DNA of 52,126 nt from Candidatus Zixiibacteriota bacterium (GTDB lineage Bacteria > Zixibacteria > MSB-5A5 > GN15 > JAAZOE01): positions 1 to 52,126 of the forward strand of contig JBDREQ010000015.1 of NCBI GenBank assembly GCA_043819555.1, given 5' to 3'. Below, one piece after another: positions 8,701-24,280 of this stretch. A model generated the notes under the pieces. The model was not told where the DNA came from and did not search any database. It was given only the letters and a program-made list of their open reading frames with translations. The stretch's first letter is position 1. Every line of letters starts with the position of its first letter. The position numbers were made by a program, and so were the translations under genes.

Positions 8701-9169
8701 TTTTTCTATCAAATAACGGCTCAGTTCCCGTTTGAGTAGTTTCGAGACTGCCGTAAATTTCGGTGTAAATATCCATGCGGCTTTTTAACACCTGCCGGAA
8801 CATCAGAGACATACCGCCGTCGTCTTCATTGATATTCAATGAAGTTTCCTCGGAGTATGCTTTTACTGGCGCCAATTCACGCAGGGCCGGTACAACAATA
8901 AAGCCGCTGGGGGAGATAGAGTAGTATCTTCCCAAAAGGGTATCGTTTTCTATAATATCCTGTGAATTTTCAATTTCCGGATATAAACTGCCGCCCCAGC
9001 TCCCCAGTTCTTTTACAACCTGGCTGAGCCAATTTTTACATACCTGATCCATTTCATTTTCGGTCGCGATTGTGGCAAAAGCGGAATTGGAAAATAAAAT
9101 CATAATGGCCAAACTAATAAATCCGGCTGTTGCGAATCTACGCGCGTGGTGTAAAAATTCTTTTAACAT
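5795..9169 (-). CDS. Secreted C10 (streptopain-like) cysteine peptidase with propeptide, beta-sandwich domains and C-terminal dockerin-like domain
   Basis: Signal peptide; GPLLSTVWHQSYPYN, VGCVSTAASQIIYYHQWP (catalytic Cys), HAIVCDG (His), YHMNYGWGG; duplicated GDAN...VGDAVYLINH.FK tail. Start placed at ATG 9169 (GGGAG RBS); the ORF track gives 9184. Confidence 0.88.
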   Translation of the reverse strand: MLKEFLHHARRFATAGFISLAIMILFSNSAFATIATENEMDQVCKNWLSQVVKELGSWGGSLYPEIENSQDIIENDTLLGRYYSISPSGFIVVPALRELAPVKAYSEETSLNINEDDGGMSLMFRQVLKSRMDIYTEIYGSLETTQTGTEPLFDRKNEQAWNEFTVSEKDFNQTMNKGLLGTTSTVGPLLSTVWHQSYPYNSLCPTGYLGRRCYVGCVSTAASQIIYYHQWPPEGTGSHSYYWGGDNDPDCDGSSPGQTLYADFSDPYTYDHSNASVAEISYEMGVAYEMNYGTCGSGAYTLEGEYIFPQYFQYDESASRAYRSSYSADGWFDLIKENIDKNRPTLYRIYSHAIVCDGWREIGTTKQYHMNYGWGGSQNSWYTLDNVYCPWPGCNPMVEGMVVNIIPLNGAPYKGGHEISDTDLGDGDGIPEAGETIKMYFTLANYGGAPLENISATLTIDDGTITITDDASFFALIPAFDSVTSYGDPFVFEIPVDYISRIDSFFINISWNGGQDTEQFSGAISIGSTNIILIDDDNYKTYENYFKGCFDNIRMPCSVWTYASLNPPPLSELNKYDFVIWFTGDDRATTLNSTNIATIKRYLDDGGNLFLTGQGIASQLAIDDPDLLNNYLKTEYQSGTYSPIIIAESGAQVLNLNDTLVVYGSSGADNQTNTERITPVNGGIAEARYVSGEHYAAVSYSGEDYKTVFFAFGFEAIRNDPDRFVSRDSMMAYIMDFFGTAGPPSPPSASGISVAPGDPDHMTDHIPDFSWSYYDGDAAPQSHYQIQVTSNADWYFIDMWDTGPVAGSETSATYLGSELMDGTTYFVRVRVSNSLYWSDWVSTDFAMNGLPDPPVGLSPDNEEMVTSSSPELSHDTAPDPDGLAVDYSYEVYADMSMTTLIASADDQPGGSNPVTWQVPVSLGEDQMSYWRVRADDALEDGTEWSELASFCVNASNQPPAPFELTNPDSAILMENLLPTFTWTATSDPDLNDEFTYMLRYSKYSDFASPKSFYDLTAEEYSLTAPLEYGLDYYWKVVATDLFGAQTVCSNIRIYMTMLEGDANADRNINVGDAVYLINHVFKSGPPPVPFIMGDANCDAQVNVGDAVYLINHAFKGGPPPGCAK

Positions 9170-9361
9170 CTGTGCTCCCATCACAAGTTAGATGCCTTCA
9201 ATTAACCCGATGCCAGTTCCTTACAGGTTATCGGCAAATTTAATGACTATTTCAATTTCTTCCAAGACATACGTTTGTATCTTAGAAAAAGAAGTTAGTA
9301 ATTTTGAACGGCGGTCCATGCTGTAGTTCCAATGCAGAACTTTTTAGCCCTCTTTGGATTA

Positions 9362-9389
9362 AATATACCCAAATTCAGATAATTGACAA
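9362..9389 (-). promoter_or_regulatory. Putative sigma70-type promoter for the C10 peptidase gene
   Basis: Minus strand TTGTCA-N16-TATATT, the same pattern seen before several other genes in the window. Confidence 0.45.
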
Positions 9390-9591
9390 TAGTTTTATTG
9401 CTTCAGGCCTAAAAAAATGTCGGAAAAGGAGTTGGAGGGGAATTATCTACTATTTGGAATTGGAACGAAACACATGAGTCATAAATTGCGTATTGATAGA
9501 CAAAGAAGCTATCGGCGAAGGACAGGCAACGCTTTATTGAATTATATCGTCTAATCTATAGAAGAAGAGCATTAAAGGAGGTTACTCTAAG

Positions 9592-10545
9592 ATGTCAAAT
9601 CTCAAGAAAGTAGCATTGGCGTTATTTATTATCCTGTCAGCAATGTCGGTAACGACCTGGGCAGGGATAAAACATGAAATCACTCGTAATTTTGAGGTAT
9701 CTCCAGGCGGCGAATTAACAATTGATACAGAAATTGGATCTATTGAGATTAAGGCATCAGATCAAAGCAATATTGGCATTGAAGTTATCCTTGATTCCAA
9801 AACCAGGGATGAAGAACGCGCGCAGGAAATGTTTGATGATTTCGAAATTACATTTAATCAAGATGGCGACGCAATTGAGATTTTTGCCGAGTATTTTGGC
9901 AATGATACAAGGCGATGGAATATATTTGGCACAGGAAGACGAATATCGTTACAGGCGGAATTTATCATAACTGTTCCGCAAAAATTCAATGTTTACGCCA
10001 AGACTTCGGGCGGGAGCATTCATGTAGGCGATTTGGAAGGTGAAGTCGATGTCCGGACTTCTGGCGGTTCGCTTCGATTTGACAATATATCAGGCCCAGT
10101 CAAGGGTAAGACGTCGGGTGGAGGCATTATGCTCCAAAGCTGCAAGGGGCGCGCTGATGTTTCTACTTCGGGAGGTTCAATCGAAATTGGACGTGTTGAG
10201 GGAGAAGTGTCGGCTCATACTTCAGGGGGCGGCATCGAAGTTGAAGAAGTTATGGGAGAGATTGACGCTTCGACGTCGGGCGGTTCGATTTATGCCCGGA
10301 TTAGCGAGCAGCCCCGGGGCGATTGTCGATTGACGACATCCGGAGGAGGAATAACGGTTTATTTATCTCCCGATATCAATGTATATGTTGACGCTCGTAC
10401 CAGTTCGGGCAGAGTAAAATCTGATTTTGAAGTGTCTTCCGGCAATCGCAAGAAAAAATCATCATTGAGAGGTGAAATAGGCAAAGGCGGGCCTGAATTG
10501 TATTTAAGGACTTCCGGAGGCAGTATCAGAATTATTGAAGATTAG
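9592..10545 (+). CDS. Secreted DUF4097-type beta-strand repeat (adhesin-like) protein
   Basis: Signal peptide, repeated xTSGGxI motifs, strong AAGGAGG RBS. Confidence 0.85.
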   Translation: MSNLKKVALALFIILSAMSVTTWAGIKHEITRNFEVSPGGELTIDTEIGSIEIKASDQSNIGIEVILDSKTRDEERAQEMFDDFEITFNQDGDAIEIFAEYFGNDTRRWNIFGTGRRISLQAEFIITVPQKFNVYAKTSGGSIHVGDLEGEVDVRTSGGSLRFDNISGPVKGKTSGGGIMLQSCKGRADVSTSGGSIEIGRVEGEVSAHTSGGGIEVEEVMGEIDASTSGGSIYARISEQPRGDCRLTTSGGGITVYLSPDINVYVDARTSSGRVKSDFEVSSGNRKKKSSLRGEIGKGGPELYLRTSGGSIRIIED

Positions 10546-10578
10546 AGTACTTTATTATACATTATTCATAGCTTGCTA

Positions 10579-10611
10579 AAACCCGCTCTTTTGATTCATT
10601 TGAGCGGGTTT
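10579..10611. terminator. Hairpin between convergent genes (probable bidirectional terminator)
   Basis: AAACCCGCTC...GAGCGGGTTT 10-bp inverted repeat followed by a T-rich run. Confidence 0.65.
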
Positions 10612-11500
10612 ATTTTTTATACCTATCGACTAATTTTCGAATTACCGCAATATGTTCCGGCGTGGTTCCGCAACAGCCGCCAATTATGGAAATCCCAAGC
10701 TCGATGAGATGGGGTATTTTATGTTCAAAATACTCAGGGGGCTGATTATAAACCGGCTGACCGTCCTGTATGACCGGCAGACCGGCATTAGATTGAATTA
10801 ATATTGGCAAATCTGATTGGGCCTTGAATTCTCCGGCGATTTCAATCATCAAATCAAGACCGTTTCCGCAGTTGGAACCGACGATATCGGCGCCCGCCTC
10901 TTTTAATTGTGTGCAAGCCTGATTTACATTGACACCCATGACGGTAAAAAATCCTCGGGGCGTTTTTTCAAAAGTCATGGTGGCCATAATTGGTATAGAG
11001 GGAGAAATATCTCGGGCCGCTTTGACCGCGAGAATAGCCTCGGATAAATCGATCATGGTTTCGATGCAGATTATATCAACTCCGGAATTTATGAATGATT
11101 GCATTTGGCGTTGGAAGCTCTGATAAAGAATTTCGGGATCGGTATCTCCATAAGGTTTTAATAATTTCCCGGCTGGACCGCAGGAGCCAGAAACATAGGC
11201 ATTGTTTTTAACAACATTTCGCACTGATTTAACGGCAGATTCAATAATCGATTCCGTTTTGTCCTGAAGATTGTAGTTGGCCAATTTGACGGGAGAGGCT
11301 CCAAAAGTATTGGTTTGGATAATTTCTGAGCCGGCCTGAAGATAATCCAAAGCGATTTTTTCGAGTAATTTAGGATTTTCCAGATTGACCGATTCTACAC
11401 ATTGATTAATATCGATACCATAGCGTTGGAGCATTGTCCCCATAGCTCCGTCGGCAACGATTATCTCACCACGCTTTAATCTGTCAAGAATTGGAACCAT
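10610..11500 (-). CDS. Homocysteine S-methyltransferase domain protein (MetH Hcy-binding module)
   Basis: DGAMGTML, AGSEIIQTNTFG, CIETM, zinc ligands GSNCG and IGGCCGTTPEHI, SNAGLP. Confidence 0.92.
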   Translation of the reverse strand: MVPILDRLKRGEIIVADGAMGTMLQRYGIDINQCVESVNLENPKLLEKIALDYLQAGSEIIQTNTFGASPVKLANYNLQDKTESIIESAVKSVRNVVKNNAYVSGSCGPAGKLLKPYGDTDPEILYQSFQRQMQSFINSGVDIICIETMIDLSEAILAVKAARDISPSIPIMATMTFEKTPRGFFTVMGVNVNQACTQLKEAGADIVGSNCGNGLDLMIEIAGEFKAQSDLPILIQSNAGLPVIQDGQPVYNQPPEYFEHKIPHLIELGISIIGGCCGTTPEHIAVIRKLVDRYKK

Positions 11501-11520
11501 CCATTATCTCCGGGTTATGA

Positions 11521-12153
11521 CTATGATAATAATTTGTCAATGCACTCAACGGCGTCCATGCCGTCAAAACCATAAGCGTCGGCGCCAATTTCATCGGCAT
11601 ATTGCTGGGTAACCGGAGCTCCGCCGATAGCAACCTTTATTCTCCCGCTCAAACCTTCTTCTTTGACTAAGTCTACGACCGATTTCATAACCGGCATGGT
11701 TGTCGTCAGGAGCGCCGAGAGGCCGATGACGGGAGCATTTTCTTTTAGTGCGGTTTCTACAAATCTTTGCGGCGAGACATCATTGCCCAGATCAATAACG
11801 TCAAAGCCTGAGCCTTTAAGCATTATACTGACGAGGTTCTTGCCGATATCATGCAAATCTCCCTGAACCGTGCCCAGGACGATTTTGCCACGGGAAGGCA
11901 TATCTTCATCAATGAATAATGGCCTCAATATATCGAGGCCGGCGTACATAGCTTTGGCGGCAAGCAGTACATCCGGCAGAAATATATCATGGCATTTGAA
12001 TTGTTCTCCGACTATTTTCATTCCGGCGATCAATCCATCGTCAAGGATCTGTTTGGGCGGAAGTTTTTGTTTGACCGCTTGAGCAGTCAATTCGGCCGTT
12101 TTGTCAAACTCCCCTCGCTTAAGCGATAATGATATATTTTCGAGCAAATCCAT
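11521..12153 (-). CDS. Cobalamin-binding corrinoid protein (MttC/MtgC-like)
   Basis: Cap domain (GLIAGMKIVGEQF...FLPDVLLAAKAM) plus GDLHDIGKNLV (DxHxxG), SALLTTTM, GGAP. ATG 12153 has a GGAG RBS. Confidence 0.93.
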   Translation of the reverse strand: MDLLENISLSLKRGEFDKTAELTAQAVKQKLPPKQILDDGLIAGMKIVGEQFKCHDIFLPDVLLAAKAMYAGLDILRPLFIDEDMPSRGKIVLGTVQGDLHDIGKNLVSIMLKGSGFDVIDLGNDVSPQRFVETALKENAPVIGLSALLTTTMPVMKSVVDLVKEEGLSGRIKVAIGGAPVTQQYADEIGADAYGFDGMDAVECIDKLLS

Positions 12154-12186
12154 TTTTATCTCCAAATCTTATAATTGATTTTCATT

Positions 12187-12876
12187 TTACCCCATTCTTT
12201 CCAGACAGGGCTGGCCTGGGCATTGGGCGCAAAATGAATATTGATGGTCGAATAAATGAATCTCATTAGGACCGTGCAGAAGCACCCCTGAGATTGATTT
12301 TAGAGGCTCCATTAAACAGCTTTCACGCAAGGTAATATCAATCTCCTCGGGCTTCAGAAAAACAAACAGCGCCTGTTGGGCACTGACATGCCATCCGCAA
12401 TACCCGGGGCTGTAGCACATAGTTTTGCCTGGCTTTGTATTTCCAATTATATTTTCCCGATACCAGGATGCGGCAAAATCTGAGGCGAGATCAGCTCCGG
12501 CTGATGCCGCGGTATCGAGCATTGAACCGAGGGCGAAGTCATTTCTGGTGAAAAGATCGGATATTTTATTGCATATTTCCTGACCGATAGTCAAGGCAAA
12601 GATGGCCAAATTGTCGGCACGAGGATAAATATCCTCGATGGGGGCAGGTGATTCGTTAAGATCTGTACTGTGGTATATGTTCTCGAAGTTTTCACGCGAA
12701 ATCTCAGATATCAAAAGAACAGGTCTTGCCAGCTGAATAAAAATATCCTGAGCGTTTTTTGCCAAATCTACAATTTCAGGTTTGACTTTGCTTCCCTCGG
12801 GGATACTTTGACCTTTCATAATTAAAGATATCTCAGGAGTAATTTTATCTACCGGGATATTGATAATCTCGCGCAT
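12187..12876 (-). CDS. Stand-alone methionine-synthase activation-domain-like protein
   Basis: ALTIG...LDTAAS...YSPGYCGW...Q..LF...LRESCLMEPLKSISG and a C-terminal CxxCxxxxC. TAATG-coupled to the upstream methyltransferase. Confidence 0.8.
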   Translation of the reverse strand: MREIINIPVDKITPEISLIMKGQSIPEGSKVKPEIVDLAKNAQDIFIQLARPVLLISEISRENFENIYHSTDLNESPAPIEDIYPRADNLAIFALTIGQEICNKISDLFTRNDFALGSMLDTAASAGADLASDFAASWYRENIIGNTKPGKTMCYSPGYCGWHVSAQQALFVFLKPEEIDITLRESCLMEPLKSISGVLLHGPNEIHLFDHQYSFCAQCPGQPCLERMG

Positions 12877-14333
12877 TAACTCCGCTCCGGTAATTTATCC
12901 ATGCCGTTTATTCTTGCTTCAGATAACATTAACCCCTCCATCTCGTCTTTAATGTCATCAGAAATGCGGGAAGGATTATAATTGGCAATCAGTTTATTGA
13001 CTTCGATATTCGCTCGTTCCCCCAGAGTCATTCTGCCTTCTTCGGCCCAGCGAGAACGATTGGCCCGTTCAATAACAGGGCCGGGAAAATGAATTTCCTC
13101 TTTCAAGTATTTTCGGGTATGATCGGCAATGAGAAGATGGCCATCTTTAAGAAGTTCCTCGAAATGGGAAAGACTGGGAAAATCTTCTTTAGGTTCAATG
13201 CCCTGAATCATGCGATGAGTCAGCCCGCAAATCTCATTATCGACGACCAGTTTCTCAAGACTAAAACAACTTTCAAAATCCAGCATGCCGGGGCCGGATA
13301 TACTATTTATACCTGACAGGGCGGCCATGGTTGCGCCCATGGACGTTTCCAGGCCGGCCTGGGCATCGAGCTGTTTGGCGTCACTGAGTCCAATATATGC
13401 TTGAGTCGGAAGTCCGAGATATTTGCCAATTTCGTTGTAGGCGCAATCAATCATTTGGGTTTCGACAGCGCCCATCGGAGTTGTCTCATAGCGAATGTCG
13501 AATATGGCCGGGGAACCTCCATATACAATTGGAGCGCCCGGGTAGGCGAGCTGACTAATGACAACACCGCTTAAGGTCTCGGCCGTATGCTGGATAAGCG
13601 TGCCGGTCAGTGTCACAGGAGAAATAAAACCGGACAGAGGCATGGCAATAAATTCTACAGGAATTGAATATTTGGCACAATCAAGTACATTTTGAGACGT
13701 GACATCACTCCATTTTAAAGGAGACGTCGGACAACAGGAAAACATAGTAAGCGGTTTATCCCTGAGATTTTTTTCATTGCCGCGAACCGCCAGTTGAAGA
13801 TTTTTCATAATTTCAAAGGCTTTAATGGTAAACGCTCCCGTAACAACCGGTTTTTCACAAAACAGTAAACTCAGAAAAAGACGATAGCTGTCGGATATTT
13901 TCTCATTGACGTCGGCTGGAATAATTGCGGTACTTTGCAATGATATATGATTAAGCTGGCTCATTAATTGGGCATATTTGATATAATCAGCCGTTGTAGG
14001 ATTCCTGAATTTGTCAGACCCCTGATCCTGAATAAATAGCGCCGCCGAACCGGGAGTATAATTGATATTATATCCGGATAAATCAGCGGCCTCTTCGCCC
14101 ATCACATTATAAAATTTAATAGAAGATGGAGCCGCCGCCAGGGATTTATCGATAAGTTCATCTTTGATTCTTACTTTATGTCCCGAGTCATCCACATGAG
14201 CGCTATGATCCGAAAGCAGTGATACGATTTCGGGATTATGAATAGTCACTCCGATTTTGTCCAATATATCGCGGGCTTCGGAAATTATTCGTTCTATCAG
14301 AGTATCATCGAGGAATTTCAATATGGGGCGCAT
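12876..14333 (-). CDS. MttB-superfamily (trimethylamine/quaternary amine):corrinoid methyltransferase, non-pyrrolysine type
   Basis: TSPLKW, PVTLTGTL...AETLSG, PGAPIVYG, GLPTQAYIGLSDAKQLDAQAGLE, GMLDF...LEKLVVDNEI. No in-frame TAG; Leu appears at the Pyl-equivalent position. Confidence 0.92.
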   Translation of the reverse strand: MRPILKFLDDTLIERIISEARDILDKIGVTIHNPEIVSLLSDHSAHVDDSGHKVRIKDELIDKSLAAAPSSIKFYNVMGEEAADLSGYNINYTPGSAALFIQDQGSDKFRNPTTADYIKYAQLMSQLNHISLQSTAIIPADVNEKISDSYRLFLSLLFCEKPVVTGAFTIKAFEIMKNLQLAVRGNEKNLRDKPLTMFSCCPTSPLKWSDVTSQNVLDCAKYSIPVEFIAMPLSGFISPVTLTGTLIQHTAETLSGVVISQLAYPGAPIVYGGSPAIFDIRYETTPMGAVETQMIDCAYNEIGKYLGLPTQAYIGLSDAKQLDAQAGLETSMGATMAALSGINSISGPGMLDFESCFSLEKLVVDNEICGLTHRMIQGIEPKEDFPSLSHFEELLKDGHLLIADHTRKYLKEEIHFPGPVIERANRSRWAEEGRMTLGERANIEVNKLIANYNPSRISDDIKDEMEGLMLSEARINGMDKLPERS

Positions 14334-14372
14334 TAGTACCCTCCGTATGATTTGACAAATTTCTAATGATGC

Positions 14373-14401
14373 AAATTACGGGTATCATTTGAAAATGTCA
14401 A
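14373..14401 (-). promoter_or_regulatory. Putative sigma70-type promoter of the methyltransferase operon
   Basis: Minus strand TTGACA-N17-TAATTT about 40 nt upstream of ATG 14333 (GGAGG RBS). Confidence 0.45.
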
Positions 14402-14483
14402 TTGAAGGATTCCAAAAATACGGACTGAGAGGCAATTTTAAGTTTAAGATAAATGATGATATTCTTAGCGTGATTGGCCAAAT

Positions 14484-14512
14484 AAAAAAACCGGCTCGAG
14501 AGCCGGTCTTTT
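14484..14512 (-). terminator. Intrinsic terminator after the lysine-rich protein gene
   Basis: Minus strand ACCGGCTCTCGAGCCGGT hairpin followed by a T run. Confidence 0.8.
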
Positions 14513-14540
14513 ATGCAATTACTAAGGTCGTTTGATATTT

Positions 14541-14771
14541 CTACTTGTGCAAATGGCAGCACTTGGCGGGAGGGGCAACCATGCGCTTACAGCGCTTGCC
14601 ATCTTTTGTCTTAGCGACGCACCGGACTTTTTTCACCGGTTTTTTCTTGGCCACTTTCTTCTTCGCTACTTTTTTCTTGGCAACCTTTTTCCTGGCTACC
14701 GGTTTCTTCTTAGCAACTTTTTTCTTAGCTGCTGGTTTTTTCTTTGCGACTTTCTTTTTCGCTTTCGGCAT
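14541..14771 (-). CDS. Small histone-H1-like lysine-rich protein with C-terminal Cys/His motif
   Basis: TAAGGAGG RBS and its own terminator; KKKVA/KKKPV pentapeptide repeats (32 Lys in 76 aa); tail RCVAKTKDGKRCKRMVAPPAKCCHLHK. Confidence 0.85.
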   Translation of the reverse strand: MPKAKKKVAKKKPAAKKKVAKKKPVARKKVAKKKVAKKKVAKKKPVKKVRCVAKTKDGKRCKRMVAPPAKCCHLHK

Positions 14772-15049
14772 TCAAATCCTCCTTATTATGATAAACTCGA
14801 CCTTACCGTATTGATTTTGTAAAAACATGTCAACAAAAAAACAATAACATTCTTTAAAATAATTTAAAATTTATTTATCATTAACCACATGCATATAATT
14901 CTGGATATGTGCATATTAATCATTATTCGGCTTAAAAATCTCGATATGAGAGAAATGTCGAAAGAACTTGATATTGATGAAGGATTAAATTAATTTGCGA
15001 GCCGGACAATTATAAGCTTATAGTGCCTTATCAATGACTGGAAATAGGA

Positions 15050-17041
15050 ATGAGTATGGCTTCTGGCAATGATATATATATAAGGTCCATGCGATCGATT
15101 GGCTACGTAAAGAGAGAAAGCGCGACCGCGGATACATATCAACAATTGGGATTTATAAGCGGGCTTGAGATTCATCAGCAATTATTGACTGCTAAAAAAT
15201 TATTTTGCCGCTGCCCGGCCGGTTTATATCAGAACGGCGATGATTATGACGCTGAGCTGGTCCGGCATATGCGCCCGACTCTCAGCGAGCTGGGCGAATA
15301 CGACGGTACGGCGTTAATGGAATTTAAAACGCGCAAGAATATTATCTATCGTATCAAGGACGAATCGGCCTGCACTTATGATATTGACGATACTCCACCC
15401 TTTGCCATAAATCGCGAAGCGCTGGATAAGGCCATAGAAATTGCATTACTCCTCGGCACCAATATTGTCGGAGAATTGCATATCACCCGTAAACAATACC
15501 TTGACGGATCGATCCCTACCGGATTTCAGCGGACGGCCATTGTCGGCATCGAAGGCGAGATACCTTTCGGCGGGAAGAGAATTCGAATTATTCAATTAAG
15601 TCTGGAAGAAGATTCATGCCGCGAAGTGTCAGATGAGGGTCATTGGCGGACTTACACGACCGACAGGCTTGGGATGCCATTAATCGAGACCGTAACCGCG
15701 CCGGACATGAAAACCCCGGATGAAGTGGCACAGGCCGCTCATTATTTGCGGTATTTAACTCGCAGTTGTGACAGTGTCCGGACCGGAATCGGGGCCGCTC
15801 GAGAAGACGTAAATGTAAGCATAAGCGGAGGCACAAGGGTTGAGATTAAAGGAGTGGCACATATTCGCCGGATACCAGAACTGACACATAATGAAGCATT
15901 CCGACAAAAAGCGCTTCTATCTATAAAGGATGAGCTTTCATCTTTAAGTATCGTTCAAAATGAATGGAGTCCGTCATCGGTTGATTTGACTCAAAATAAT
16001 ATCATTCCGTTAAAGGGTATATTGAATGAAATTAGAAAGAAGAATTTTCAAATAATTGGAATAAATCTGCCGGGATTTTATGGTTTGTTATCATTTTTTA
16101 CTCAGCCGGGAAAAACATTTGCCGACGAGTTGAGCTGCCGATTGAAAGTAATCGCCTGCATTGAAAGACCAAATATGATTCATTCGGAAGAGATTGTGGA
16201 TCTACCCGGAAATGAAATGGTAAATAAAGAGGTATGGGATAAACTGGCAAGTCATTTCAAGGCCGATGAAAAAGATGCCCAATTGATTCTGTGGGGTAAC
16301 GCGGATGATATCAAAACGGCAATTGAGACTATTGAAGAAAGATGCCGTCTGGCTTTCAATGGAGTACCCAATGAAACAAGAAAGGCATTGCCCGATGGAA
16401 CGACTATTTTCGAACGAGTTTTACCCGGCCCGGACAGGATGTACCCCGACACCGATTCGGCTCCGATTCCAATAGAAGACGAGCATATTGAGAGCATAAA
16501 GAAGGATTTGCCTGTTTCAGTTCGAGATCGTGTACTTCAGCTACAAGGATGGAACGTCCCGGCGGATACATTCGATTATATACTGCGAAGAAACCTCGCA
16601 TGGCTGATAGAGAAAATTATCAATGATTTCAATCTTCCGCCCAAGTATATTGGGACCTTATTCGGCCATACTTTCCGCGGTATTGAAAGGAAAGTCACGC
16701 CATCCGCCGATTTTAATGATTACTCTATATACGGCTTGTTTAAGTTTATTAATGCTCAGGGATTAAAAATCGAAATAGCGGAAGCCATGCTTCCTGAACT
16801 GTACGCTCACCCCAAAATGGTTTTCGATTCTATCTTAAGCATTATCGGATATAAAAAATGCGTGCGGGAATCAATAATTGGCCTGATTCCAAATCTCATA
16901 AATAAATTTGACTCGATAAAACGAAATATATCTCCGTTTGCGAAACGTGACTGGGTGATGGGGCATCTTAGAAAGATGGCTTTGGGAAATGTAGCTCTCA
17001 ATGAAATCGCGAAGACGGTAGAAGAGGAGTGCGCGAAATGA
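15050..17041 (+). CDS. gatE: Glu-tRNA(Gln) amidotransferase subunit E (archaeal GatDE type)
   Basis: SGLEIHQQL..KKLFCRCP, MRPTLSELGEYD..A..E, RKQYLDGSIPTGFQRT, LEEDSCR, DRLGMPLIE, RTGIGAAREDVNVSI.GG.RVEIKGV, AspRS-like insertion, GVPNETR...RVLPGPDRMYPDTD. Confidence 0.92.
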   Translation: MSMASGNDIYIRSMRSIGYVKRESATADTYQQLGFISGLEIHQQLLTAKKLFCRCPAGLYQNGDDYDAELVRHMRPTLSELGEYDGTALMEFKTRKNIIYRIKDESACTYDIDDTPPFAINREALDKAIEIALLLGTNIVGELHITRKQYLDGSIPTGFQRTAIVGIEGEIPFGGKRIRIIQLSLEEDSCREVSDEGHWRTYTTDRLGMPLIETVTAPDMKTPDEVAQAAHYLRYLTRSCDSVRTGIGAAREDVNVSISGGTRVEIKGVAHIRRIPELTHNEAFRQKALLSIKDELSSLSIVQNEWSPSSVDLTQNNIIPLKGILNEIRKKNFQIIGINLPGFYGLLSFFTQPGKTFADELSCRLKVIACIERPNMIHSEEIVDLPGNEMVNKEVWDKLASHFKADEKDAQLILWGNADDIKTAIETIEERCRLAFNGVPNETRKALPDGTTIFERVLPGPDRMYPDTDSAPIPIEDEHIESIKKDLPVSVRDRVLQLQGWNVPADTFDYILRRNLAWLIEKIINDFNLPPKYIGTLFGHTFRGIERKVTPSADFNDYSIYGLFKFINAQGLKIEIAEAMLPELYAHPKMVFDSILSIIGYKKCVRESIIGLIPNLINKFDSIKRNISPFAKRDWVMGHLRKMALGNVALNEIAKTVEEECAK

Positions 17042-18420
17042 GTGATATATTCAAAGGATATAAAGGCGCGGCTCTGGAGGCTCTGAAAAAATTCAATATG
17101 CGGGTTTGGGGAGAAGCGCTGGTTGAAACCACTCGCGGAGATTTTTCGGGAATAATTCTGCCGCGCGCGGAAAGTGATGACGATCGGCATATCGTATTGA
17201 AATTAGCGACCGGATATAATGTCGGAATTACAGTAGAAACTATAACAGCCATGGGCGAGACGGGATACAAAGAAGCGCATTATAAAATCCCCGAAAAGGA
17301 ATTCCCCTATAGCGAAGGCAAGCCAAATGTTAAACTATTCGGAACAGGCGGAACGATTGCCTCGAGGCTCGATTATCGAACCGGTGCGGTGATTCCGGCT
17401 TTCTCCCCGGGTGAATTGTATGGAGCCGTTCCGGAACTGGCAGATATTTGCAATTTGACCACCGAGAAGCTATTTGCCGTATTTAGCGAAAATATGGGGC
17501 CAAAACAATATATCGCTCTTGCCAAAGCAATAGGCAAAGAGATTGAGAACGGAATTGACGGAATTGTTATTGGCCATGGTACGGATACGATGCATCATAC
17601 CGCGGCGGCCCTGTCATATATGATACAAAATTCACCGGTTCCGATTGTTTTGGTGGGATCGCAGCGTTCATCGGACAGGCCGTCCTCGGATGCGGCTCTG
17701 AATCTGATGCATGCGGCCAAAACCGCCGGCGAATCGGATATTGCCGAAGTGGTTGTCAGTATGTTTGGGCCGACGTCGGACCAGTACGGGCTTTTGCACC
17801 GGGGAACGCGCGTTCGAAAAATGCACTCCTCTTATCGTTCGACTTTTAGGACAATCGGCGACATTCCTATCGCTACTGTCGATCGAGATAAAATTACGCC
17901 GATTCGGGATGATTATAATCGCCGGCGGAAGGACAGAAATGTCAACGTCGTGCCGGTTTTTGAAGAGCGGGTGGCGATGGTTTATTATTATCCCAACATG
18001 CATTCCGATATAATTGATTCTTTGGTGAATAACGGTTATCGGGGAATCATTATTGCCGGAACCGGATTGGGGCATGTCAATAAGCCGGTTTATCCAGCCA
18101 TAGAGCGGGCCACTAAAGCCGGGGTTGCGATTTATATGACAGTCCAGACGCTGTGGGGTTATGTTCATATGTTCGTTTATGACACCGGTCGCGATTTGAT
18201 GAGCAAGGGAATAATCCCGACAGAAAATATGCTCCCAGAAGTGGCATATATCAAACTCGGCTGGGCGCTGGGGCAGACTGATGATCTGGAGGAAGTCAAA
18301 AAAATAATGTTGACGCCTATTTGCGGAGATATTACTGAGCGGGAGCCGTATGATGGATATCTGATTTATCAGGGCGGAACGCCGGAAATACGAAAATTCC
18401 TGAAATCAAATATTCGATAG
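17038..18420 (+). CDS. gatD: Glu-tRNA(Gln) amidotransferase subunit D (glutaminase subunit)
   Basis: N-terminal GatD domain (VLKLATGYNVGI) and asparaginase-like motifs GTGGTIASRLDYRTGAV, HGTDTM, GSQRSSDRPSSD, KMHSSYR, GTGLGHV. ATGA overlap with the gatE stop and GAGGAG RBS. Confidence 0.93.
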   Translation: MSDIFKGYKGAALEALKKFNMRVWGEALVETTRGDFSGIILPRAESDDDRHIVLKLATGYNVGITVETITAMGETGYKEAHYKIPEKEFPYSEGKPNVKLFGTGGTIASRLDYRTGAVIPAFSPGELYGAVPELADICNLTTEKLFAVFSENMGPKQYIALAKAIGKEIENGIDGIVIGHGTDTMHHTAAALSYMIQNSPVPIVLVGSQRSSDRPSSDAALNLMHAAKTAGESDIAEVVVSMFGPTSDQYGLLHRGTRVRKMHSSYRSTFRTIGDIPIATVDRDKITPIRDDYNRRRKDRNVNVVPVFEERVAMVYYYPNMHSDIIDSLVNNGYRGIIIAGTGLGHVNKPVYPAIERATKAGVAIYMTVQTLWGYVHMFVYDTGRDLMSKGIIPTENMLPEVAYIKLGWALGQTDDLEEVKKIMLTPICGDITEREPYDGYLIYQGGTPEIRKFLKSNIR

Positions 18421-18443
18421 TTCAATAATCCAGCCCGGGTAAA

Positions 18444-19637
18444 TTATCTAAATCGAAATGAGACGCCGGTGGTTATTGAATAATCATCAAAATTGTATAA
18501 TGGCTTATTTGAGTTGTTGTTCATATGCTCGATATTAAGCACCGGTTCGATCAAATACTCATGATTTAATTTGACAGGGCATTGAAGGCTTAAATAGAAT
18601 CGATTGACACTATCTTCACGTGGTTTATCTTCAGTTTTGACTTCCAAATATGTTCGATCAAGTCCATCGGCATCATATCGATTGGAAGTGGTCAAAAATC
18701 GTTTATTCCAATGGCCGTATCCAGTGTTTACTATTAATCCTGGTATGGCAAACGATTTAATATTGACTGAAGCGCTTTGCCCTTCCCAGACTGTCGCCCA
18801 AGGTGATAAATATCCGGTTGAAATATCCCACAAAAATCCGCCTCGATAATTTTGAAAATTCTGAATGGTATAGATCAGATTCAGGCCAGTTTTTCTGCCA
18901 AGCGAACGGGATAAACGTGGTGATAGATAAAGCACCCATAAATCGTCTTTAGTGTCGGCGATATCTTTAATCCACATAATATCATAGGGAATGGGTTCGG
19001 GCAAATCGGGGCGCGACAGCGGCCAGCCATCTCCGGTCAGGTTGGCGTCTTTATATAAATAATTGGTACGTCCGTATCCGGCCTCAAAATCAAAACTTGT
19101 CTGCATGGGGAGAACAGCATTTATTCCCATAATAAAATCAAAATCACGCTTATAATCGTTGCCGGTATTGATATAAACCGTCGAGCGAAAAGAAAGGCCG
19201 CCTCGAATATGGAAGCGCGGATTGAGTTGGAATCCGCCAATTAATTTTACCTCGCCAAAATTATTATCGACACCACTAAAATCACTATGATATTTCCGTC
19301 CGTTTAAGCTTGCCGCAAAATAGAGGGAAAATCGTGATATCTCAGATAGGGGGATATAGGTTACATTAAATCTGCCAAAAATATTGCTCAGGCCTATCGT
19401 TTCACGATAATATGTTTGCTCTCCTGATAAAGACACTTTCAGTGAGGGGAGAGGAATATAATCAACTATCGCCGAAGTTATTGAACAGGCGTCATACGTA
19501 GAACTGCTGTCCTGAAGCAGATTACTGCTTGATTTAGTACTGGCGGAAAAATCGATAGAGATTTGTGCCTGAAGAGCCGGCGAGAGAAAAGCTAAAATAA
19601 AAATTAAAGCGGAGAGGATTGAAACTATATGCCGCAT
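18444..19637 (-). CDS. Putative outer-membrane beta-barrel protein of unknown function
   Basis: Signal peptide, many amphipathic Tyr/Gly/Ser-rich strands, C-terminal strand YSITTGVSFRFR. Confidence 0.65.
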   Translation of the reverse strand: MRHIVSILSALIFILAFLSPALQAQISIDFSASTKSSSNLLQDSSSTYDACSITSAIVDYIPLPSLKVSLSGEQTYYRETIGLSNIFGRFNVTYIPLSEISRFSLYFAASLNGRKYHSDFSGVDNNFGEVKLIGGFQLNPRFHIRGGLSFRSTVYINTGNDYKRDFDFIMGINAVLPMQTSFDFEAGYGRTNYLYKDANLTGDGWPLSRPDLPEPIPYDIMWIKDIADTKDDLWVLYLSPRLSRSLGRKTGLNLIYTIQNFQNYRGGFLWDISTGYLSPWATVWEGQSASVNIKSFAIPGLIVNTGYGHWNKRFLTTSNRYDADGLDRTYLEVKTEDKPREDSVNRFYLSLQCPVKLNHEYLIEPVLNIEHMNNNSNKPLYNFDDYSITTGVSFRFR

Positions 19638-20047
19638 ACGCCACCTGCGCAGCCGTTGGCAATATTACCCAATCCAATTCCATTGCCGACTCCGAAATCT
19701 ATGCCGAATGTAAAGCCTATCCGTTGATTGGAATGGCAGCGAACATGGAATTCGCGAGCCCCAAAGGCTTCCCGATTATTCAAATAGAGCTTTGTGGAGG
19801 TATTATTACTTAAAGATTCGTTTAGCGACTGACCCAGAATGCCTGGGGCAGCCTTATTTTCAGCGTTTTTATTTTCAAAATCATCCGGAATGCCGTTGCC
19901 GTCATTATCACGATAATTATCGTTGATCCCGTCACCGTCAAAATCGATATATATTGAATTATATATTTTCATCGAGTCTTCGGCATGGGCTGAATCCGTA
20001 GAATATATAAAACTAAGCGCCGTAAATGCTAGAAGCAATAACTTCAT
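19625..20047 (-). CDS. Small exported protein with DxDGDG Ca-binding-like repeats and C-terminal CAGGVC
   Basis: Signal peptide (…SAHA|ED); IDFDGDGINDNYRDNDGNGIPDD; Gly-rich tail ending GCAGGVCGI; overlaps the next gene by 13 nt. Confidence 0.75.
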   Translation of the reverse strand: MKLLLLAFTALSFIYSTDSAHAEDSMKIYNSIYIDFDGDGINDNYRDNDGNGIPDDFENKNAENKAAPGILGQSLNESLSNNTSTKLYLNNREAFGAREFHVRCHSNQRIGFTFGIDFGVGNGIGLGNIANGCAGGVCGI

Positions 20048-20128
20048 ATAAATCCCAATCCATACTATGCTTTTGCTCCGTTAATTTATCCACTGCTGGC
20101 GGTTTTGGCAATACCTGTCTTATGATGG

Positions 20129-20159
20129 TTCAGGGATAGATTTTTAGCCAATCCCTGAA
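20129..20159. other. Intergenic inverted repeat (RNA hairpin without U-tail)
   Basis: TTCAGGGAT-N13-ATCCCTGAA about 20 nt downstream of the selenoprotein stop; no poly-U on the minus strand. Confidence 0.5.
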
Positions 20160-20178
20160 TGTACTTTAAATATGACGA

Positions 20179-21573
20179 TCATAAACAATTGGGCGGATTG
20201 CCGCCTTTGAATATATGATTTATTAAAAAGACAGCGTCACCGATATTGACATTATTATCGCAATTGGCATCAGCCCTTTCTGCGGGATCGCTTGGAGGAC
20301 CGCCTTTGAAAATAATATTAATAATGTAAACGGCGTCGCCGACACTTATGCCATAGTCGCCGTTAGCATCACCCCGATTGTGAACGGTTATCTTTAGATT
20401 AGGCGACCATATACTTTCGGCGTCCATTTCATCCTTGACTTTTACACGGTAATTATAATTTCCGGCCATGTTCCAGGCGTGCGATTCAATTGTTTGCGTT
20501 CCCGATTCCACAGGACCAGTCCAATCAGATATATTTCCGTCGCCCCAGTCGAATTTGTACCATAAATCCTGGCCGTCAGGATCGGTGCCATTGGCGGCGA
20601 TTTCGTACGTTCCGTAGGTTATTCCGATTGACGGACCGCTTATATCCATAGGCCGGGGCGGAGTCTGATTTATAAATTGATTGTTGATTATGGAAACCGC
20701 AATTCCGAGATTACCTTCGCTTAGCCAGTTAAGCGTTACGGACAGGCTGATATTCTTGACTTCTCTTACGCCGGAGGATTGAGAAGCGACAACGTAGTTG
20801 GAAAGATTGCCGGACAGGTCACCCGGTGATGCGCCGACCACTACTTGATAACCCCCGTCAACAAAAACGGTAGGAGCGGCTTGTAAATTAAAATCATCAA
20901 AAACCCGACGACTGGCTTCGTTGTTTTTATTATAGATAAGGGAAGCATGATACACATTGTATCCGGCCGCTTGCAACGCTGCTAACGCCTCACGGGCGTA
21001 AGGGCAAAATGGTCACGTGGTTCGCGTCCCTTCTTCAAAGAGAACCGAATGGGTGTAGTTGCCATCACCTCCTGCAATGCCGGTTTCACCCGGATGAGCT
21101 CCGGTTACAGCGTCCGGGAAATAAGCTGTAAATGGGCCGCTTCCGTCACCCGGGTAAGACAATCTGAATTCACCGTCATTTCCCGAAATAACCGCGATAA
21201 CCATGATATTATCTTCGGCAATATCGCCATACCCATGCGTCGAGCCGCTCCAAACCCGGGTCTCTTCAAAAGTGCCAAGATAAGGAATGGAAAGAGTATC
21301 GTAAAAAGCAAAACCAAGAAATCCATTTTCATATGTCGAGTAATTATAATCTCTCCAGCGAGATACCGGTTCAATTACGTAAACTCGAAGAGTGGCATCA
21401 TAATTGGCGCTAAGGGATTTTTTCGACGGTGAATCTTTATGGACGTTAACTTCTGAATTTATTTTTCCATCTGTTATGGTAATTTCCTTAGATGAATACC
21501 CGGAGTTATCAGCCAATATTCCTCCGCAGACAAGAAATAAAATCAGGATTGCATTGCAACAAACTCTTGTCAT
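20179..21573 (-). CDS. Candidate secreted selenoprotein, 464 aa: Omp28/thioredoxin-like UxxC domain, PKD-like domain, dockerin-like tail (Sec at TGA 21015-21013)
   Basis: ORFs 21013..21573 and 20179..20976 are in the same frame, separated only by one TGA and 12 sense codons: HSVLFEEGTRTT-TGA-PFCPYAREALAALQAAGY. Later APTVFVDGG (cis-Pro loop), DPDGQDLWYKFDWGDG (PKD-like) and a dockerin-like tail. SECIS-like hairpin follows the TGA. Confidence 0.85.
20980..21006 (-). promoter_or_regulatory. Putative bacterial SECIS element
   Basis: mRNA after UGA: CCAUUUUGCCCUU-ACGCC-CGUGA-GGCGU-UAGCA. 5-bp upper stem (20999-20995 with 20989-20985), 5-nt loop with GU at positions 2-3 starting after an 18-nt spacer, possible lower UGC/GCA pairing. 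Confidence 0.7.
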
Positions 21574-21652
21574 GATTTGATCTCCGAAAAGTAAAAAGTC
21601 AAGTCTTAATACGACCCTAAAATTGGGCCAGCCCAGTCTCTTTTATGCGAAT

Positions 21653-21680
21653 AATATACCAATTTAGTTTTCTTTGGCAA
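21653..21680 (-). promoter_or_regulatory. Putative sigma70-type promoter of the selenoprotein gene
   Basis: Minus strand TTGCCA-N16-TATATT with TGn extended -10, about 80 nt upstream of ATG 21573. Confidence 0.5.
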
Positions 21681-21896
21681 GGCAAAAAATATTGCAATTT
21701 ATCATTTATACGAAGGGAATAAGAATTTGGAGTATTTCATTTTCTGAGAGATACTTGATTAATATTAAGGATGAAATTGGACCGGGAATCCACCGGCCGG
21801 CCAGTTGTAAATGTAAACAAAACTAATAAGGGCCATTTCGTAAAAGCGGGGGAAAATCATCCAAATCGGTTTAAAGATGTACTTTACATAATGACT

Positions 21897-23426
21897 CTAT
21901 AGCGTTATAGGCATGCCCATTAGTGGCCATACGAATCTGACAAAAACAGCTATAACCACAATTAAGAGGATGCTGGCCGGGATACCATAATTAAAGAACT
22001 CTCCGCTTGTAAACTGTTTGCTTTCGTAGGCAATTGCGTTTGGCGCCGCTCCGACGAGAAGCAAGAAAGGCATTCCGGCCGCTACAAGAGACGCGAATAA
22101 AACGACTTCAGGGGCCACACCAAGATATGGCGCCATGGTCAGAGCCACCGGCATGGTAATGGCGATAGCGGCGACGTTCATTATAAGATTTGTCATTATA
22201 AGCACAAATAGCGCGATCCCAATCACGAACGCGAACCAGCCTAAATCATGAAGAATGACAAGCCATTGAATAGCCAGCCATTGGGCGGCTCCCGTTTGCC
22301 ACAGACAAAAGCCGATACTCATGGCCCCGCCAAACAGTAATACGATATTCCACGGGATTTTTTCGAGGTCCTCGATAGTCAGAATTTTAAAAAGGAAAAA
22401 CAAGGCAGTGGATGTCAGGATGATGGCACTTTTATCGACATGTTCAAGTCCGGGTATGTGTTTACTAATGCTAATAGCTAAGATTGTTAGTCCTACTATA
22501 AGAAGAGTCAGTTTTTCGGTTTTGGTAATTTTCCCCAAATGTTTATTTAGCGTCAATGCTCGTTCCCTAAGGCCGGGGATAATTTTATGTTCCGGCCTTA
22601 AAAAAACCATGAAAAATCCCCATAGCAAAAAGACCATGAGAGCGCCGATCGGAAACATATAATACGTTAATTGGAAAAAAGTTATTTCGTGGCCAGTGAT
22701 ATCTCTAAAGAAGCCGATAGCGACCGCTCCTCGTGCCGCACCTAATAGGGTAATTATACTTCCCGCACCGGCGACAAAGGCCATACCCATAAACAAACCT
22801 TTACCGAATTTTGTAGGTCGGTTGCTATCGTCGTATAATGCATAGATGGCCATCAAGAGCGGATAGACAGCGGCGGCAACGGCAGTATGGGCCATGATCA
22901 AAGTCAGGGCAGCAGTCATAATAAAAGTACCCAAATAAATCATGCTTGTTTTTTCACCAACGACCAGCAGCATTTTGTAGGCCATACGCCTGGTTAAACC
23001 GGACCTGGTGAAAGCCATTCCTATTACGACCGAACCGATAATAAACCAAACCGACGGGTCCATGAAATCATTAAAGGCGACTTTGGCCGATCTGATTAAG
23101 AAGATTGCTTGAACAACCCCGATGACAATACTTGTAACTCCAATAGGGACGACCTCAAAAACCCACCAGGTTGCGGCAAGTAAAAACAGCCCCAGCGCGG
23201 CTTTTCCTTCACGAGACAAGATAAAATGTTCTCCCTGTGGACTGACAGCATTGGGCCAGTCAGGCGATATATATATTCCTATAAAGAGTATTAAACCCAG
23301 CGCGATAAAAACCAGGCGCCGGTAGTCTATGCGGCGAGCAACGCCGGCGACATGAATATCGTGCGGCGCTTCAGGAAGTTCTGCTCCCGGAGGTACGCTT
23401 CCTTTAGGTTTAAACTCGTCATTCAT
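21897..23426 (-). CDS. SLC13/DASS family anion (dicarboxylate/sulfate) transporter
   Basis: Many TM helices; WWVFEVVPIGVTS, SGLTRRMA, IPWNIVLLFGGAMSIG, MTNLIMNVAA, GAAPNAIAY. Confidence 0.9.
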   Translation of the reverse strand: MNDEFKPKGSVPPGAELPEAPHDIHVAGVARRIDYRRLVFIALGLILFIGIYISPDWPNAVSPQGEHFILSREGKAALGLFLLAATWWVFEVVPIGVTSIVIGVVQAIFLIRSAKVAFNDFMDPSVWFIIGSVVIGMAFTRSGLTRRMAYKMLLVVGEKTSMIYLGTFIMTAALTLIMAHTAVAAAVYPLLMAIYALYDDSNRPTKFGKGLFMGMAFVAGAGSIITLLGAARGAVAIGFFRDITGHEITFFQLTYYMFPIGALMVFLLWGFFMVFLRPEHKIIPGLRERALTLNKHLGKITKTEKLTLLIVGLTILAISISKHIPGLEHVDKSAIILTSTALFFLFKILTIEDLEKIPWNIVLLFGGAMSIGFCLWQTGAAQWLAIQWLVILHDLGWFAFVIGIALFVLIMTNLIMNVAAIAITMPVALTMAPYLGVAPEVVLFASLVAAGMPFLLLVGAAPNAIAYESKQFTSGEFFNYGIPASILLIVVIAVFVRFVWPLMGMPITL

Positions 23427-23469
23427 GACCGCTCCTGCGAGATTGCGCTATTGGATTAAACATTGAATT

Positions 23470-23994
23470 CTACAGTAAAATATTGGCGATTTCGTGAAAT
23501 ACATCAACGCTTCGGACAACGCCGACGACATTAGAATCCTTGAGAACCGGTAACAAGGTCAATTCGCGGCTGACCATTTTATAAATTACTTTGGCCAGGT
23601 GATCATCAAAATGAACGGTCGCCACTATTGGCTGCATCACCTCGCTGACCTGTTGCTCAGCTTGTTCCTGCATAGCTTTGGCTATGCGGCCGGCGGATAA
23701 ATCAACCAGGTCAGGATCGATATCAACGTCGAATAGTTGGCCGCGTTTGGGGGCGGTCATGGTTCTCATAAATTTTGGTTCCAGGCCGCGGAAGATATCT
23801 CTCCGACGGACAATTCCCAGTAATTGATATTTTTCGTCAAATACCAGCAGGGCTCTGGGAAGAGAAGTACGATCCTTGTGAGTCAATTCGGATTTATCCA
23901 GTTCCGCCACAGCCTGCCTGAGTGTGAACCAGTACGGAATATGGGGATAATTTTCAAGGGGAATCATAATTTCCCCGGCGCGTTTAGATATCAT
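23470..23994 (-). CDS. CBS-domain pair protein
   Basis: AGEIMIP...LLVFDEKYQLLGIVRRRDI and VSEVMQP...LPVLKDSNVVGVVRSVDVF; directly upstream of the DASS transporter. Confidence 0.88.
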   Translation of the reverse strand: MISKRAGEIMIPLENYPHIPYWFTLRQAVAELDKSELTHKDRTSLPRALLVFDEKYQLLGIVRRRDIFRGLEPKFMRTMTAPKRGQLFDVDIDPDLVDLSAGRIAKAMQEQAEQQVSEVMQPIVATVHFDDHLAKVIYKMVSRELTLLPVLKDSNVVGVVRSVDVFHEIANILL

Positions 23995-24117
23995 TGCGCA
24001 CTCCTGTTTTAAATTCTCTAAGAAGATAAATAAGTGTAAGAAAACAACCCGTACAGGTGTTACGGATTATACTTTTGTTGTCCCACATAAGAAAGCCTTC
24101 CTCACTTTTCAGCCGTC

Positions 24118-24146
24118 AATATAGTAAGCAGTATTAAGCAGGTCAA
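24118..24146 (-). promoter_or_regulatory. Putative sigma70-type promoter of the CBS-DASS operon
   Basis: Minus strand TTGACC-N17-TATATT. Confidence 0.45.
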
Positions 24147-24280
24147 CAAAGATTGCAGGGTAGTTTTGGATATAATTTTGAATTATATTTCAGGCTGCCA
24201 ATTCCTGGAATGACTAAAAGTTTCTCAAATGCTAATTAGGATTTTGCGAATTTCATTGGTACCTATATTGTTGATAAGAA

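Follow-up and report, generated by a model that had tools for sequence, protein, structure and literature searches.

The window described here, a stretch of 52,126 bases, is the whole of contig C15 of G000, a genome of a Candidatus Zixiibacteriota bacterium (3.35 Mb in 79 contigs, completeness 97.13%, contamination 0.37%). It carries gatE and gatD, the genes for the two subunits of GatDE, the Glu-tRNA(Gln) amidotransferase of archaea. GatDE is found to be a long-standing, selected trait in most of this bacterial phylum. It is also present in cultured Bacteroidales, and it is nearly always found beside GlnRS, the glutaminyl-tRNA synthetase. Where GlnRS is missing in the phylum, it is the bacterial amidotransferase GatCAB and not GatDE that covers for it, and GatDE is kept for another reason.

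These observations break two rules, namely that GatDE is restricted to archaea and that amidotransferases persist only in organisms missing a synthetase or an amino acid pathway. According to reviews of 2008 and 2022, GatDE "is an archaeal signature protein" (PMC2330236, 2008) and "exists exclusively in archaea" (PMC8762117, 2022), and the same view is given in PMC9499178. The archaea-only distribution is a premise of arguments on how the Gln-tRNA pathways arose. A literature search, which left subscription journals mostly outside its reach, found no paper on bacterial GatDE.

Identity and integrity of the gatE-gatD pair

The two genes are as follows.

15050..17041, plus strand: gatE, 663 amino acids (aa); kinase/transamidase and tRNA-binding subunit, by its match to NF003107 and to GatE structures
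17038..18420, plus strand: gatD, 460 aa; asparaginase-fold glutaminase subunit, by its match to TIGR02153 and its GatD_N domain

The gatD ATG at 17038 overlaps the gatE TGA stop (17039-17041) as ATGA. The gatE start given is that of the longest open reading frame (ORF), from 15050; in a reading by eye the ATG at 15056 has the better Shine-Dalgarno spacing, and the database copy of the protein, at 650 aa, would start at 15089.

GatE passes the cut-offs of two curated NCBI equivalogs, with 471.7 bits for NF003107 (cut-off 456) and 382.5 for TIGR00134 (cut-off 319.55), whereas on GatB models it reaches 56-124 bits against cut-offs of 314-680. Its best solved relatives are 1zq1_C from P. abyssi (9e-84) and 2d6f_C from M. 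thermautotrophicus (1.1e-82), and the identity to solved GatE proteins is 30-34%. An AlphaFold2 model (predicted local distance difference test, pLDDT, 87.7) has as top fold matches 1zq1_C, with a template-modelling (TM) score of 0.83, and 2d6f_D, with 0.80; overall the model gives TM 0.79-0.83 with 1zq1_C and the 2d6f chains and 0.54-0.75 with GatB chains, all by target length. Compared with five bacterial GatB from related genomes, GatE residues 71-104, 300-411, 427-442 and 450-461 have no counterpart. An earlier reading of the window from its sequence (the first-pass annotation) had described an AspRS-like insertion that GatB does not have, and it is residues 300-411 that bear this out; the model also shows faint matches to AspRS folds, as can be expected from the presence of such an insertion in GatE. 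The helical part and the YqeY-like tail of GatE align as well, but the motif in the tail differs from both the archaeal and the GatB forms. Residues H42, E186/E187 and E213 do not vary among the 24 sequences of an alignment. The Mg2+ ligands of M. thermautotrophicus GatE are His15/Glu157/Glu184 (PMC2330236), and in our own alignment mapping H42, E186 or E187, and E213 are their putative counterparts.

GatD scores 513.6 bits for TIGR02153 (cut-off 324) and 508.4 for NF003217 (cut-off 310), and displays the GatD-specific N-terminal domain PF18195 (46.9 bits, cut-off 25.7). The best solved relatives are GatD of P. abyssi (1zq1_A, 9.5e-122) and of M. thermautotrophicus (2.3e-114), compared with 2.8e-38 for the best plain asparaginase. 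The motifs GTGGTI (at 102), HGTDTM (180) and RKMH (260) are kept and cover the Thr, Thr-Asp and Lys catalytic residues of the asparaginase fold. The profile scores and structure matches thus confirm a true GatE and a true GatD in a bacterial genome, not a GatB with an ordinary asparaginase. A grouping with GatB and type I asparaginases, which the first-pass annotation had named as an outcome that would overturn it, is seen neither in a GatE tree rooted on GatB nor in the GatD scores.

The pair is a genuine part of the genome. Window positions 8876-24191 are collinear with a 131 kb contig (C34) of the same-genus genome G001, at 68-83% DNA identity on both sides of gatE-gatD; the two differ only in that G001 carries about 1.4 kb more DNA immediately 5′ of gatE (window 14441-14481, against 12897-14339 of the G001 locus L114). 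GC content is even along the contig, and in codon usage gatE and gatD are at percentiles 53 and 78 of 1101 long ORFs of the genome. The intact, ATGA-coupled genes, both of which pass their family cut-offs, lie as first described among genes of bacterial type (hybrid histidine kinase, FeoB, Fur, an FHA/SpoIIE-type regulator, dockerin/PKD proteins; the score of an LpoB-like neighbour is below its cut-off). An artefact, be it an assembly chimera, archaeal contamination of the bin or a misnamed GatB and asparaginase, has as its sole ground the prior expectation that GatDE is archaeal. It is already refuted and is left with practically no probability, given the collinearity with G001, the host-like GC content and codon usage, the low contamination, the presence of GatE in 13 of 13 family relatives, the curated GatE and GatD cut-offs passed and GatB cut-offs widely missed, and a tree in which GatE is split from GatB with a support of 100.

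Both genes are under purifying selection. Between G000 and G001, gatE has a ratio of nonsynonymous to synonymous substitution rates (dN/dS) of 0.079 and gatD one of 0.030, whereas five genes nearby range from 0.046 to 0.115; these values are rough since dS is near 1 in this comparison.

Distribution of GatDE and its relation to GlnRS and GatCAB

The closest GatE homologues are named Zixibacteria, the best named one being 84% identical, and all 120 GatE homologues among the matches listed are at least 59% identical. GatE names have already been assigned to these bacterial proteins by NCBI's pipeline. A fixed sample of 201 phylum genomes, each at least 80% complete and taken as Zixibacteria by the names of homologues, has GatE in 141 and GatD in 140, with near-identical family tallies. 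In families f4 and f14 the two genes are unlinked, and both are retained. GatE was not found in the other 60 genomes, which include same-genus partners of carriers (G030 and G162, G045 and G134). Thus, as had been suspected, the operon is not unique, and it is found in other bacterial records as well. A scan of one genome per species gave 588 GatE relatives. Bacterial records account for every one of the best 80, whose identity to the window protein is 46-71%, and those with titles of other bacterial groups are in the range 50-71%. Among these 80 are the cultured Bacteroidales Perlabentimonas gracilis, Marinifilum flexuosum DSM 21950 and Labilibaculum sp. K2S, which are culturable carriers for testing the role of GatDE. 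In M. flexuosum and Labilibaculum sp. K2S, GatE is accompanied by GlnRS, and a search for GatB found none. In sampled Bacteroidota GatE is present in 14 of 301 genomes, the starting genome counted.

Titles of metagenome-assembled genome records are not all reliable and should not be taken for taxonomy ("Thermotogae", "Eubacteriales" and "Rickettsiales" appear among the best 80). For example, locus L029 of G209, titled "uncultured Ignavibacteriales bacterium", is from G009, with the same GlnRS and GatB coordinates, and belongs to the family of G000.

For 64 of 64 loci with both genes on the matched strand, blastp classification puts gatD 3′ of gatE in nearly all; the exceptions, 2-3 of the 64, have a gatD-like ORF about 1.3 kb off or upstream. 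A conserved partner gene beside gatE-gatD was sought and rejected, as the commonest neighbour family is found at 8 of the 64 loci, all in Bacteroidota. The carriage in 141 and 140 of the 201 genomes, the synteny with G001 and the host-like codon usage show that GatDE is a long-resident trait of the phylum, not a one-off or recent import.

By the usual accounting GatDE is surplus in G000. The genome encodes GlnRS (759 bits), one bacterial GluRS (549), AsnRS (497) and a bacterial AspRS (711), together with an AsnRS-like paralogue of 345 aa, AsnB, an AsnA-like gene and two glutamine synthetases (Gln-synt_C). Missing Gln or Asn biosynthesis was therefore rejected as a reason to keep GatDE. GatCAB, taken as GatB, GatA and GatC together, was not found in G000: the only match to GatB models is gatE itself (100 bits), and the best match to the GatA model, at 217 bits, is well under its cut-off of 481. 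A GluRS of archaeal type was not found in the genome either. Both tRNA(Gln) genes (CUG and UUG) among the 44 tRNA genes of G000 have U1-A72 and G73, the bacterial form, and none of the 44 is an archaeal A1-U72 tRNA(Gln). The two features that go with the archaeal system, an A1-U72 tRNA(Gln) and the lack of GlnRS, are thus both absent. The synthetase inventory and the inspection of the 1-72 pairs had been proposed in the first-pass annotation, which left the choice between Gln-tRNA made by the archaeal route and a repurposed enzyme; the presence of GlnRS, AsnRS, a bacterial GluRS and U1-A72 tRNA(Gln) argues against the archaeal route as the route, and repurposing is weighed below.

Two further observations concern the charging genes of G000. 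The gltX and glnS genes are neighbours on the same strand (C21:54287-57410, minus strand) with about 120 bp between them, an arrangement that looks like a single operon. The tRNA-Glu(CUC) gene (C1:70748-70822) displays a G1.U72 wobble pair, G2-C71 and a short D-loop of 8 nt, and is very unlike the tRNA-Glu(UUC) of the same genome. Close matches to it are present in 187 of the 201 phylum genomes, though many stop at position 71, so that position 72 varies; because genomes that do not have GatE are among the 187, this tRNA was rejected as a special GatDE substrate.

Presence (+) and absence (-) of GatE, GlnRS and GatB in the 201 phylum genomes are distributed as follows.

GatE+ GlnRS+ GatB+: 64 genomes
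GatE+ GlnRS+ GatB-: 65 genomes (the state of G000)
GatE+ GlnRS- GatB+: 11 genomes
GatE+ GlnRS- GatB-: 1 genome
GatE- GlnRS+ GatB+: 19 genomes
GatE- GlnRS+ GatB-: 22 genomes
GatE- GlnRS- GatB+: 17 genomes
GatE- GlnRS- GatB-: 2 genomes

GlnRS is present in 129 of the 141 GatE-bearing genomes; at the genus level, as read from genus codes, the link between GatE and GlnRS is weaker but not gone. GatB, unlike GatE, accompanies the loss of GlnRS, with GatB in 28 of the 31 GlnRS-less genomes and GatE alone in one (G177), where C-terminal fragments of glnS remain. Because of these two counts GatDE is not a stand-in for GlnRS. AsnRS is found in 185 of the 201 genomes, and its absence is not enriched where GatE is the only amidotransferase (it is missing in 6 of 65 such genomes, compared with 3 of the 24 that have neither GatE nor GatB). 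Outside this sample, GlnRS is present in 51 of 55 GatDE-bearing genomes from other records, and of the first five of these only the Zixibacteria genome has GatB.

At the thresholds used, neither GlnRS nor GatB was detected in G177, G227, G256 and G258, the last three of which have no completeness rating, and G256 and G258 did not give even the usual GluRS cross-match. G258, the genome of locus L107, has two GatE-like ORFs, of 506 and 646 aa (C21:249022-249636 and C31:18991-19542); it could be a bacterium with GatDE as its sole route, or else the bin could be incomplete.

In single families gatDE genes are found near genes for charging tRNA. Family f14 (L189, which is G102:C1:1512000-1526000, and L190 and L191) has gatE 1.5-3 kb from gltX, which is followed directly by tRNA-Gln(CUG); tRNA-Glu(CUC) is about 3 kb away on the other side, and the intervening genes differ. 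In G102, a genome in one contig, gatE and gatD are 1.4 Mb apart and the GluRS gene has undergone a recent duplication, with one of the two copies beside gatE. That copy was rejected as a GluRS2 lineage since it is a recent duplicate in the GluRS tree. In family f7 (G043:C34, G073:C39 and G121:C28, from two genera) glnS is head-to-head with gatE-gatD at a distance of about 1-4 kb, a proximity that gives a context link matching the co-occurrence of GlnRS and GatDE. The f14 and f7 neighbourhoods may be regarded as weak context links to gatDE.

Possible role and origin of bacterial GatDE

The window's pair matches the archaeal GatDE of P. abyssi (1ZQ1) and of M. thermautotrophicus (2D6F, with tRNA(Gln)) in its two subunits, in its catalytic residues and in the domain set, which comprises the cradle, AspRS-like insertion, helical domain and tail of GatE and the N domain and asparaginase fold of GatD. 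It differs in having a bacterial host with GlnRS, no A1-U72 tRNA(Gln) and no archaeal-type GluRS found, and in the altered tail motif. To our knowledge archaea do not have GlnRS. In bacterial GatCAB, GatB is a paralogue of GatE with the same catalytic core, and the overall reaction is the same. However, GatDE has an asparaginase-type GatD in place of the amidase-type GatA, has no GatC, and has insertions in GatE that are not in GatB. In Thermus and Deinococcus GatCAB serves Asn synthesis. An amidotransferase is likewise retained as surplus GatCAB beside GlnRS and AsnRS in these two genera and in Bdellovibrio (PMC4206432), the last described in the same source as a predicted asparagine auxotroph. 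G000 has AsnB, the AsnA-like gene and two glutamine synthetases, and because of this an explanation by Asn supply does not carry over. Bacterial GatCAB reads U1-A72 and the size of the D-loop of tRNA(Gln) (PMC2330236).

Our preferred reading, held tentatively at somewhat less than an even chance, is that gatE and gatD encode a working heterodimeric, tRNA-dependent amidotransferase. Its substrate would be Glu-tRNA(Gln), and it would give the cell, in addition to GlnRS, a second route that is dispensable or serves for correction. By homology, GatE would bind Glu-charged tRNA, phosphorylate the side-chain carboxyl with ATP and Mg2+ and amidate it, with ammonia that GatD would release from Gln or Asn. 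GlnRS, and not GatDE, would be the main supplier of Gln-tRNA(Gln) in the cell, and GatDE would convert the Glu-tRNA(Gln) that is formed by a bacterial GluRS of incomplete discrimination. GatDE would then need to accept tRNA(Gln) with the bacterial U1-A72 pair, in which it would differ from its archaeal counterpart. Such an auxiliary or corrective function fits the finding that 148 of the 170 GlnRS-bearing phylum genomes keep at least one amidotransferase. It also fits a GluRS tree of 40 rows, which follows species groups and not pathway class; a generally relaxed GluRS is therefore possible.

A number of observations weigh against such a role. In pairs of genomes from one genus, of which one has GatE and the other does not, the GluRS is almost the same, and the loss of GatDE therefore needs no visible change in GluRS. 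A rule for GluRS type by Arg358 comes from the T. thermophilus literature. Arg is found at the aligned position in the G000 GluRS and in 10 of 10 other aligned phylum GluRS, but the rule failed its control, as 5 of these 10 are from GlnRS-less, GatB-only genomes that must mischarge; it is uninformative on mischarging of tRNA(Gln) by the G000 GluRS. GatE and GatB do not exclude each other (75 genomes with both, 66 with GatE only, 36 with GatB only and 24 with neither). GatB is retained in 11 of the 12 GlnRS-less GatE genomes, the twelfth being G177 with its glnS fragments. If GatDE were an equivalent Glu-amidotransferase, an occasional replacement of GatCAB would be expected, which is not what the counts show; it should be noted that all co-occurrence counts are raw and uncorrected for shared ancestry. 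The tRNA-binding parts of GatE are fast-evolving: in 71 bacterial GatE from other records the mean identity to the window is 72% in the catalytic cradle but 40% in the insertion, 37% in the helical domain and 35% in the tail, where the motif is unlike the archaeal and GatB forms. In 68 bacterial GatD from other records it is 84% in the asparaginase N domain. Lastly, G000 does not have the A1-U72 tRNA(Gln) whose pair is read by the archaeal enzyme (PMC2330236).

Some of these observations would suit a repurposed enzyme, one that has kept its chemistry and acts on another substrate, e.g., Asp-tRNA(Asn), one isoacceptor, or an aminoacyl-tRNA used outside translation. Its distribution is not complementary to that of GlnRS or GatCAB, GatCAB is kept where GlnRS is lost, no archaeal-type tRNA(Gln) is present in G000, and the conserved catalytic cores are joined to divergent tRNA-binding domains. 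We consider repurposing possible but doubtful, as no candidate substrate emerged: AsnRS is widespread and its absence not enriched, AsnB and the AsnA-like gene are present, the odd tRNA-Glu(CUC) is shared with GatE-less genomes, and none of the 64 loci points to a conserved neighbour. In a related form, bacterial GatDE would be no supplier of Gln-tRNA at all, its changed tRNA-recognition domains having taken it to another substrate carried by tRNA, or else to a task in regulation or quality control. We consider this form about as doubtful as repurposing in general; if true, it would represent a new branch of tRNA-dependent amino acid chemistry in bacteria. A fully redundant relic, i.e., an enzyme imported long ago that remains active on Glu-tRNA(Gln) but serves no separate purpose and is in the course of being lost, would be in line with the 60 phylum genomes in which GatE was not found, same-genus partners of carriers included, and with the few carriers among sampled Bacteroidota. 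It is nevertheless improbable in view of dN/dS values of 0.03-0.08 and catalytic parts 72-84% identical to relatives from other records, and both genes are kept even where unlinked (f4, f14), which points to selection and not drift.

For the origin of the corrective amidotransferase preferred here, or of whatever GatDE has become, GatE trees rooted on GatB were constructed. FastTree was run on 141 rows (five GatB as outgroup, the window, 19 named loci, and those 116 of 150 listed representatives that are 590-720 aa long) and IQ-TREE, with the site-heterogeneous model LG+C20, on a subset of 66 rows; the two agree. The window is in a tight clade with bacterial-titled records (support 100), which is nested in a larger clade (100) of listed representatives, joined there by one CSSED10-310 bacterium and by a record from Rhodothermaceae. 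This larger clade has as its sister a cluster in which one member is Heimdallarchaeota-named (Shimodaira-Hasegawa-like approximate likelihood ratio test, SH-aLRT, 99). A Thorarchaeota-named group is further out (81-83), and Thermoprotei- and Acidilobaceae-named clusters are in the other half of the tree. In a 14-row alignment the motif variant RK-Q/N-YLDGS is common to the bacterial clade and two Asgard-named rows, and is not in four other archaeal rows. By their labels, the closest archaeal relatives of the large bacterial GatDE clade in these trees are Asgard, and this widespread clade is apparently derived from Asgard-like archaea. An old transfer would agree with this more readily than would a pair kept since the last common ancestor, with direction and depth inferred from the trees.

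The first-pass annotation had offered horizontal acquisition or ancient retention and had proposed the phylogeny as a check, in which GatE is indeed separate from GatB and has Asgard-labelled neighbours. A singular acquisition does not agree with 141 carriers in 201 genomes, 13 of 13 family relatives and the codon usage, and of the two options old transfer is favoured. Taken together, what stands of that annotation is the true pair, its non-uniqueness and the sound contig, which the collinearity with G001 supports; the singular acquisition does not stand, and the gene inventory argues against the archaeal route as the route.

Surroundings of the operon

Upstream of gatE the following region is found.

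14334..15049, no strand assigned: intergenic region of 716 bp, A+T-rich, between a divergent mttB-like gene and gatE

It is presumed to be the promoter region of gatE; promoter-like sites in the sequence upstream of gatE are not commoner than in shuffled sequence. An Rfam scan of the window gave no family at gathering score, and between 14300 and 15150 only sub-threshold, chance-like matches. A riboswitch or leader 5′ of gatE was therefore rejected.

Divergent from gatE, on the minus strand at 10610-14333, is a four-gene corrinoid methyl-transfer cluster. It consists of an MttB-family methyltransferase (PF06253; 351.8 bits for the trimethylamine equivalog, below the cut-off of 525), a 229-aa protein that matches the B12 methionine-synthase activation domain, an MtgC/MtbC-like corrinoid protein and a protein of the homocysteine S-methyltransferase type. 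The cluster looks like a quaternary-amine demethylation system. Elsewhere in G000, a tRNA-SeC(UCA) gene is located at C25:38574-38668, and because of its presence the organism probably makes selenoproteins.

Dockerin-type modules, unusual outside cellulosome producers, are found on both sides of the operon, each in a gene on the minus strand. The gene at 5795-9184 encodes a protein of 1129 aa with a peptidase C10 domain, an Ig-like domain and a weak dockerin match, and that at 20179-20976 a protein of 265 aa with PKD and dockerin domains.

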